This document shows positions 5,594-6,010 of a stretch of 6,032 nucleotides of DNA, piece after piece (positions within the stretch are counted from its first letter, which is position 1; every line of letters starts with the position of its first letter). The position numbers and the translations under genes are program-made. The notes beneath the pieces are model-generated. The model was given only the letters and a program-made list of their open reading frames with translations, did no database searches and was not told the DNA's origin. The DNA comes from Escherichia phage ECO95 1-6-1, in sequence record OR845271.1; one strand, given 5' to 3'.

Positions 5594-5956
5594 TCATCTT
5601 GCTGTAAGCGGCTTGTTGCTACGATGACCAGCCGCGTAAAGTGCTACGTCTGGAAGACATACGCCGGTTTCTGGTGGCTTATGACCAAACTCATTTGCGT
5701 ACACAATGGCTGCCCGTTCCAGATTGCGGCTGTATTCTTCCAGTTGCCAGAATGCATCTTTCGCCATGAACTGAAGTGATTTTGCGTCTTCAATACGTTT
5801 TGGCGTTTCATGTTTTCCTTTGGCCTGAATCTGGGCGCGGCTAAGGGTGGGGCGGTGTAATACTTCTGAACTGGCTGTAGTCTCATTCTGAAGCGCAGCG
5901 CGACGTTCGCGGCGACGACCTGCTGCTGAACCATTGAAAACTGTTCTGCGTGTCAT
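5594..5956 (-). CDS. N: N-like transcription antitermination protein (120 aa)
   Basis: N-terminal arginine-rich motif GRRRERRAALQ matches the lambda N motif QTRRRERRAEKQ. Overall resemblance to recalled 21/H-19B/933W-type N proteins (MTRRT..., SSEVLHRPTLSRAQIQAKG...). Strong Shine-Dalgarno AGGAGG 5 nt before the ATG at 5956. First gene of the operon, as N is. Confidence 0.75.
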   Translation of the reverse strand: MTRRTVFNGSAAGRRRERRAALQNETTASSEVLHRPTLSRAQIQAKGKHETPKRIEDAKSLQFMAKDAFWQLEEYSRNLERAAIVYANEFGHKPPETGVCLPDVALYAAGHRSNKPLTAR

Positions 5957-5987
5957 AGTGACCTCCTGATGAACTTTGGTGAAAGCG

Positions 5988-6010
5988 CCGGGACCTGTTT
6001 CAATTCCCGG
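5988..6010 (-). promoter_or_regulatory. Dyad-symmetry hairpin in the N leader, candidate nutL boxB
   Basis: CCGGGA-N11-TCCCGG is a perfect 6-bp stem, 32 to 54 nt upstream of the N start. Stem and loop differ from lambda boxB (5-bp stem, GAAAA-type loop), and no convincing boxA is found; the window ends at 6032. Confidence 0.3.

Follow-up and report, generated by a model that had tools for sequence, protein, structure and literature searches.

An epsilon34-type N antiterminator gene with a predicted boxB beyond the window edge and a leader hairpin that probably caps a conserved long helix

At a probability of roughly 80%, we read the right-hand end of the window, the 6,032-nucleotide stretch of Escherichia phage ECO95 1-6-1 (OR845271.1) analysed here, as the start of a pL operon, comprising the N gene and the final 76 nt of its leader, with the nutL boxB lying past the edge and the hairpin visible in the leader capping an RNase III-type helix rather than serving as the target of N. 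[quoted passage not shown] What the region encodes is the ordinary N gene, the early antiterminator, of a Salmonella phage of P22-like type, and the rest of the window is a P22-like early-left operon that comprises a DUF7666 gene, cIII with an Rfam thermosensor, an Erf/Rad52-like annealing protein, an HTH protein and abc2.

The N gene occupies positions 5594-5956 of the minus strand (120 amino acids, the stop codon being counted in the coordinates), and its product starts MTRRTVFNGSAAGRRRERRAALQ.../MTRRTVFNGSAAGRRRERRAALQNETT.... A Shine-Dalgarno (SD) sequence, AGGAGG, can be read directly at 5962-5967 on the minus strand, 5 nt 5' of the ATG (5956-5954). The initial annotation had proposed an N-family antiterminator from the letters alone, a proposal that stood to fall if the protein did not align with the family in a real search. 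Profile searches did place it there, with Pfam PF25694 (N_peptide) matching residues 2-120 at 67.8 bits (E = 1.2e-18), well over the curated cut-off of 27.9, and PHROG 271 (anti-termination protein N-like) matching at E = 3e-35. A phmmer search of PDB chains with N returned no N peptide and a single chance match (E = 2.4).

Within the family, the protein is 100% identical to N of Salmonella phage S.Kent 1-2-1 and ~91% identical to gp43 of epsilon34, which, together with g341c and related Lederbergvirus phages, has the same ARM, GRRRERRAALQN. N of the 933W/HK97 type (Stx phages, HK97), linked to H-19B N by the epsilon34 record and the 933W annotation, is 70% (tblastn) to 75% (MAFFT alignment) identical to the window protein outside the ARM, with central and C-terminal regions alike, whereas the ARM itself differs (RSRRRERLKAK compared with AGRRRERRAAL in the window). 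By sequence comparison, N is classed as an epsilon34 subtype within the H-19B/933W/HK97 N group.

The core of the ARM, RRRERRA, spans residues 14-20 (codons at 5897-5917, minus strand), is accompanied by R3 and R4, and aligns with the ARMs of lambda, 933W and P22, the lambda and P22 N sequences having been taken from their genomes. Its identity with lambda N, already noticed in the initial annotation, holds for lambda residues 6-12 and extends to an A at -3 and a Q at +3 of the core as well as to an RP(T/I)LS motif, although overall identity with lambda N is ~30% and lambda Trp18 has no equivalent in the window protein (Thr26). Since the synonymous codons for RRRERRA differ between the window, epsilon34 and lambda, acquisition of the motif through recent recombination with lambda was unsupported. 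The C-terminus also differs from that of lambda in being P22-like, its last 30 amino acids showing 63% identity to the P22 gene 24 protein (E = 4e-9).

DNA searches with the window returned Salmonella Lederbergvirus phages as its neighbours. The full window, a repeat expansion aside, is matched by an IMG/VR contig (L169) at 99.7-99.8% identity, and phage S.Kent 1-2-1 (L001) is 99.6% identical across window positions 2400-6032; the layout past position 6032 is read from relatives of 99.5-99.8% identity. Both L001 and L169 continue identically past the edge, with the same leader and a pL-like promoter (TTGACC-17-TATCTT), and the transcript start in both, AUCAACAGGACGCAC, is homologous to the lambda pL RNA start. 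Their leader then contains a spacer hairpin (GAUUCA-GUGA-UGAAUC), UACG and a hairpin CGGCU-GAAA-AGCCG, and a cI-like repressor and cro lie upstream of it. N is accordingly the first pL-operon gene past pL and nutL, beside the immunity region, in both relatives; of this gene order, the window itself shows just the part downstream of N (cIII, erf-like and abc2 genes). The N leader is ~216 nt long in L001 and L169, and because the boxB hairpin falls 65-78 nt past position 6032, the window contains just the final 76 nt. Of the two alternatives that had been offered for the origin of the N target, the first, a nutL beyond the window edge, is therefore the one seen in both relatives, and the pL promoter and immunity region that were to be sought further rightward were found there.

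The nutL boxB of these near-identical phages is CGGCU-GAAA-AGCCG, and in L001 the nutR boxB, UCGCU-GAAA-AGCGA, lies on the opposite strand, 36 nt past the cro stop. The sequence GCTGAAAAGC occurs exactly twice in 6.6 kb of L001 (at 2925-2934, plus strand, and 375-384, minus strand; chance expectation 0.02), once in the early pL transcript, within the leader, and once just after the Cro-like gene in the pR transcript, which is the classical nutR position. Both copies correspond to sites outside the window, from which GCTGAAAAGC is absent even with one mismatch allowed. Epsilon34 has the same boxB sequences as the window-type phages at nutL (CGGCUGAAAAGCCG) and nutR (UCGCUGAAAAGCGA), and the GenBank records of epsilon34 and g341c mark the nutR 14-mer as a putative boxB and leave nutL unmarked. 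The leader ends, the ribosome-binding site and the two-hairpin nut (spacer hairpin, UACG, boxB) are likewise the same in 933W/HK97, whereas the boxB loop there is GACAA and differs by one base from the GAAA of the window type; with this loop, the 933W-type boxB, GCGCUGACAAAGCGC, becomes the same 15-mer as that of P22. For H-19B, nutR has been described as two hairpins, with N contacting the boxB loop through its ARM, 12-RSRRRER-18 (PMC3526286).

Across ~120 loci with a common conserved ribosome-binding region, N falls into two ARM classes, RRRERRA and RRRERLK (933W type), and boxB follows this division. All RRRERRA-type loci with a readable leader have GGCUGAAAAGCC at nutL, and the nutR loop is GAAA in 34 of 34. 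The RRRERLK-type loci have GCGCUGACAAAGCGC (n = 73) or a divergent GCUCCGUCAACGAGC (n = 5) at nutL, a GAAA loop in none, and GACAA as the nutR loop in 60 of 60, such that a GAAA-loop boxB is confined to RRRERRA among the ARM classes. The association spans 26 (RRRERRA) and 37 (RRRERLK) different nutL-nutR spacings. As the ARM and nutL are ~150 nt apart, their association could be partly linkage, whereas the association with nutR, which holds across several kb of mosaic immunity region, argues against linkage. Variation in the boxB stem is exclusively compensatory (CGGCU/AGCCG, AGGCU/AGCCU, UCGCU/AGCGA, UAGCU/AGCUA). The GAAA loop is closed by U-A in every predicted fold; this pair, being invariant in all, draws no support from covariation, and a 6-nt loop, UGAAAA, may be an alternative. 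From the co-variation we infer that N would bind the GAAA boxB through its ARM. The second of the two alternatives offered at the outset, recognition of an RNA structure different from that of lambda, thus holds for the kind of site, since this N type pairs with a non-lambda boxB whose loop is a 4-nt GAAA and not a pentaloop, and fails for its place, which is upstream and not the window hairpin. In five IMG/VR relatives (L019, L034, L058, L103 and L117) we also observed a third N sub-class (...GTSRARRRERLKAK...) with GCUCCGUCAACGAGC as its nutL hairpin, which hints at another specificity variant in the 933W/HK97-type N group.

No match to a canonical boxA (CGCUCUUUA-like) was found, with up to two mismatches allowed, between the transcript start and boxB of L001, where the boxA-equivalent position reads CAUACAACGAUU; the boxA region of H-19B nutR is likewise non-canonical (CCGCUAUUUU). 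The absence of a canonical boxA and a different apical part of the leader set the window type apart from lambda, and P22 differs from it in having the canonical boxA CGCUCUUUA, the ARM TRRHERRRK, a GACAA boxB loop and the upper helix ACUGGCG/CGCCAGU. A canonical boxA-boxB pair further upstream had been named in advance as the finding that would make the window hairpin irrelevant; the boxB half of that pair is present in the relatives and the canonical boxA half is not. The segment CGCUUUCA, which the initial annotation had taken for a partial boxA-like match in the non-canonical order, proved to be a chance-level match, as GCTCTTTAA with up to two mismatches gives 17 matches in locus L001 against 24.7 expected. 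Pairing across the full leader makes CGCUUUCA part of the 3' strand of a long helix, whose partner, GAAAGCG, lies outside the window.

Folding of the leader RNA, which had been suggested as a check, brought out this helix once the whole leader was used. The visible leader (83 nt) folds no better than shuffles (z = -1.45), and the full leader refolds (z = -4.0) into a helix of 20 bp that has a single bulged A and stops one base short of the SD region. In the predicted folds, GACC just 5' of the helix pairs with GGUC in the 3' part of the SD. The 3' strand of the helix lies at 5969-5987 on the minus strand (CGCUUUC, the bulged A and CCAAAGUUCAU, with CGCUUUCA at 5987-5980), and the 5' strand, GUGAGCUUUGGGAAAGCG, falls 36-53 nt past the edge (L001:2948-2965), its GAAAGCG at 36-42 nt. 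With the partial exception of L047, each of 46 distinct leaders, whose apical inserts (30-190 nt) are of about a dozen unrelated kinds, has the helix in its MFE fold. The upper-stem pairs differ between leaders in a mutually compensating manner (GAAAGCG/CGCUUUC, GAUGCGAUG/CAUCGCAUC, GGUGUGGUG/CACCACACC, GAUUGGAUG/CAUCCAAUC, GGUGAAUGCAG/CUGUAUUCACC and others); in epsilon34, where the apical cassette differs and the window hairpin is absent, GAUGCGAUG/CAUCGCAUC encloses a short unrelated insert. Over 23 distinct pairs of arms, that of lambda among them, the fraction of paired cells is 97.6%, compared to 35-43% in slid-register controls, and nine of the 20 pairs have compensatory changes, with a covariation score that no shuffle reached.

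A helix of ~20 bp and conserved structure hence stands between nutL and the N ribosome-binding site, and its homology to the lambda leader helix is apparent in several features. The lambda N leader folds alike (base GCUUUGGGGUGUGUG/CACACACCACCAAAGC), the helix base CUUUGG(G)/(C)ACCAAAG and the bulged A are common to both, with CUUUGG.../...CACCAAAG beside the SD, and the arms of 933W are near-identical to the boxC-containing arm of lambda. We take the lambda leader stem that shares this base to contain boxC and to be where RNase III processes the N leader. Cleavage of the lambda N leader by RNase III and its effect on N translation were reportedly described by Steege in 1987 and Wilson in 2002. 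One article describes translational autorepression of lambda N through NutL, with a highly structured leader in between (PMC5725501, citing Wilson 1997, 2002), and this article and a second one describe modulation by RNase III of N/Nus repression of N translation at NutL (PMC5725501, PMC5371410); the latter also lists Steege 1987, on lambda N leader RNA processing, among lambda RNase III targets (PMC5371410). Overall, the leader may be a conserved RNase III-type helix whose apical insert, be it a hairpin cassette or a tRNA-like element, is freely swapped between phages.

In the window type, the apical insert includes the dyad to which the initial annotation had drawn attention, CCGGGA-N11-TCCCGG, which is present as reported. 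On the minus strand at 5988-6010, the RNA would read CCGGGA (6010-6005), an 11-nt loop, AUUGAAACAGG (6004-5994), and UCCCGG (5993-5988), and of the two hairpins in the apical cassette this is the one nearer the 3' end. The first hairpin is cut by the edge, its 3' half, GGACUGAGAAGCGAC, lying at 6018-6032 (minus strand) and its partner, GUCGU...AGCUUAGGCC, outside, in L001 and L169. A perfect 6-bp dyad also turns up in ~20% of the sequences obtained by dinucleotide shuffling of the 76-nt leader, so that the dyad alone is at chance level, but RNAalifold analysis of 16 distinct cassette variants found compensatory double changes in five of the six stem pairs, which marks it as a real RNA hairpin; the loop UUGA(A/G)A(C/U)AG is constant across all 16. 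The cassette is also found in the leaders of lambda-type N genes (MDAQARRRERRAEKQAEW...), of other N types and of P22 gene 24, whose homologous apical cassette has the same hairpin, CCGGAAAUUGAGACAGGUUCCGG, and each of these has its own boxA and its own, different boxB upstream. The observation that the hairpin does not resemble lambda boxB was therefore sound: stem covariation, together with its presence before N genes with different ARMs and boxBs, indicates a genuine hairpin that is independent of N specificity, and its absence from epsilon34 and others of the same N type indicates that it is dispensable for that type. An Rfam search of the leader returned no family and led us to reject tRNA-likeness of the window-type cassette. 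We also rejected a small ORF of 22 codons (GUG...UGA) in the cassette, since its P22 version contains a stop in frame and an indel of 2 nt.

A model of the leader as a simple RNase III substrate does not account for how strongly the apical loop, UUGAAAYAG, is conserved. An alternative that we consider unlikely holds that the hairpin and its apical cassette do more than passively cap an RNase III helix and adjust the translation of N or the stability of the leader, either as a recognition site for another factor or as a module for tertiary contacts. Consistent with this, the loop UUGA(A/G)A(C/U)AG, an upstream repeat, CUUGAAAU, and a segment, GGGCCGGACUGAGAAGC, keep their sequence as the stems covary, and the cassette moves between phages of different N types and upper-helix sequences. 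However, many leaders of the same N type have wholly different cassettes (about a dozen kinds), making this one dispensable for N function, Rfam holds no family for it, and the sequence conservation may reflect just recent horizontal spread.

It is highly improbable that CCGGGA-N11-UCCCGG is the boxB-equivalent of this N, a new RNA target near the gene, even though it is the sole strong dyad in the visible leader and its loop contains UGAAAC, which bears a superficial likeness to UGAAAA in the real boxB. N genes whose ARMs are unrelated (P22 TRRHERRRK, lambda-type RRRERRAEKQAEW, NRRRARR and others) have this hairpin and loop in front of them as well as a boxB of their own further upstream; the hairpin lacks a second copy on the pR side, whereas GCTGAAAAGC stands at both nut positions; and it is missing from further leaders of this N type, that of epsilon34 for example. 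Less probable still is that the hairpin terminates or attenuates transcription within the leader, for although the 6-bp stem is GC-rich, lies 5' of a gene and recalls the weak terminator tL0 reported close to lambda nutL (PMC7315355), the bases after the hairpin are CGCUUUCACC and form no U-tract, a terminator scan of L001:2650-3500 found none, and every fold nests the hairpin within the long helix.

Returning to the reading in which the hairpin caps an RNase III-type helix, we infer N-boxB binding, RNase III cleavage and an effect on translation from these comparisons. The arginine-rich N-terminus of N would bind the nutL boxB, CGGCU-GAAA-AGCCG, with nutR as the second site, and N, once bound, would act with NusA and RNA polymerase to carry transcription past the early terminators. 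The centre of N, with its RP(T/I)LS motif, would contact NusA, to judge from the alignment with lambda, in which the motif stands at the start of residues 34-47, presumably the NusA-binding region of lambda N; the P22-like C-terminus would contact RNA polymerase. Neely and Friedman are said to have found, in 2000, that H-19B N needs Nus factors less. Antitermination by H-19B N has been studied in reporter or in vitro transcription assays, and its C-terminal domain is required at distal terminators (PMC3526286). The 20-bp helix with its bulged A, topped by two small hairpins, is predicted to enclose the leader between nutL and the ribosome-binding site and, with the adjoining GACC/GGUC pairing, would dampen N translation if it behaves as in lambda. 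By the same analogy, an RNase III cut in the helix would separate nutL from the N coding region and so may relieve both the structural repression and the N/Nus-mediated autorepression.

NMR structures of the lambda GAAAA/GAAGA and P22 GACAA pentaloops show extrusion of the fourth and the third loop base, respectively. According to published structures, P22 GACAA loops out its C and lambda N prefers a GNRNA pentaloop folded as a GNRA tetraloop. The window-type boxB resembles that of lambda in its U-A-closed G-A-A-A loop of GNRA type, as the transcript does in its homologous start, and its loop has four nucleotides to lambda's five, which leaves no base to extrude. We lean, by a little, towards a joint reading in which a true GNRA tetraloop boxB (U-GAAA-A, nothing extruded) is read by a lambda-like RRRERRA helix that lacks Trp18, with the leader as a modular scaffold. 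If true, the tetraloop boxB would be a natural 'minimal' third solution beside the lambda GAAAA/GAAGA and P22 GACAA pentaloops, and the combination of a lambda-like ARM with a boxB loop one base shorter would offer a natural experiment on the extruded base and on Trp18.

Part of this is already known: the epsilon34 genome paper describes the N-terminal 27 residues of N as unlike those of relatives and predicts a novel BoxB specificity (PMC2629481), and the nutR boxB is annotated in GenBank. New here, all within a known system, are where nutL lies, a strict co-variation among three elements, a boxB loop that differs by one base from that of 933W/P22, and comparative proof that the leader helix exists and has a swappable insert. 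For annotation, the epsilon34-type N/nut specificity class is now placed and its nutL located. For phage regulation, the helix, on our reading the counterpart of the RNase III leader helix of lambda, is kept across lambda-, P22-, H-19B- and epsilon34-type N genes, and its conservation while the apical insert is interchangeable supports a general role in the control of N translation.

Further structural observations concern the leader. Just past boxB, CCAAAG-UGAG-CUUUGG (L001:2941-2959, with an equivalent in all leaders) is a possible local hairpin that competes with the long-range pairing of CUUUGG to a second CCAAAG beside the SD, and the same alternative hairpin is present in lambda (CAAAGC-AGAAG-GCUUUG) and P22; it could serve to switch SD access during transcription. 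In three IMG/VR loci of the same N type (L051:1552-1678, minus strand, and also L086 and L099) the apical insert is a tRNA-like element. In L051 the Rfam tRNA model matches this element at 39.6 bits (E = 3.7e-7; gathering score 29); the acceptor stem (the upper leader helix) is intact, as are the D arm and T arm, and ~70 nt stand in place of the anticodon arm. ARAGORN called no tRNA in the insert, and megablast of the cassette against the phage collection returned nothing similar. Such an insert might replace RNase III by RNase P-type processing.

Elsewhere in the window, a 167-aa ORF (5090-5593, plus strand) converges on N, the two stops abutting at 5593/5594. It belongs to PHROG 1244 (function unknown), carries a C-terminal CxxC...CxxC and matches Pfam Zn_ribbon_SprT (E = 0.009) and PADLOC Cas10 (E = 7e-4, probably spurious) weakly; given its place at the sieB position of P22 and lambda, it may be a prophage-expressed moron. 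The Rfam family Lambda_thermo, the cIII thermoregulator, was detected at 4006-4064 (minus strand, 81 bits), overlapping the start of the 46-aa cIII gene (3911-4051). The DUF7666 gene (4251-4910, minus strand) contains a 27-nt tandem repeat at 4459-4559 (3.7 copies) that encodes (S/W)AATNTG(N/D)R-like units and is present in many more copies in the otherwise 99.8%-identical L169, consistent with a protein repeat of variable length.
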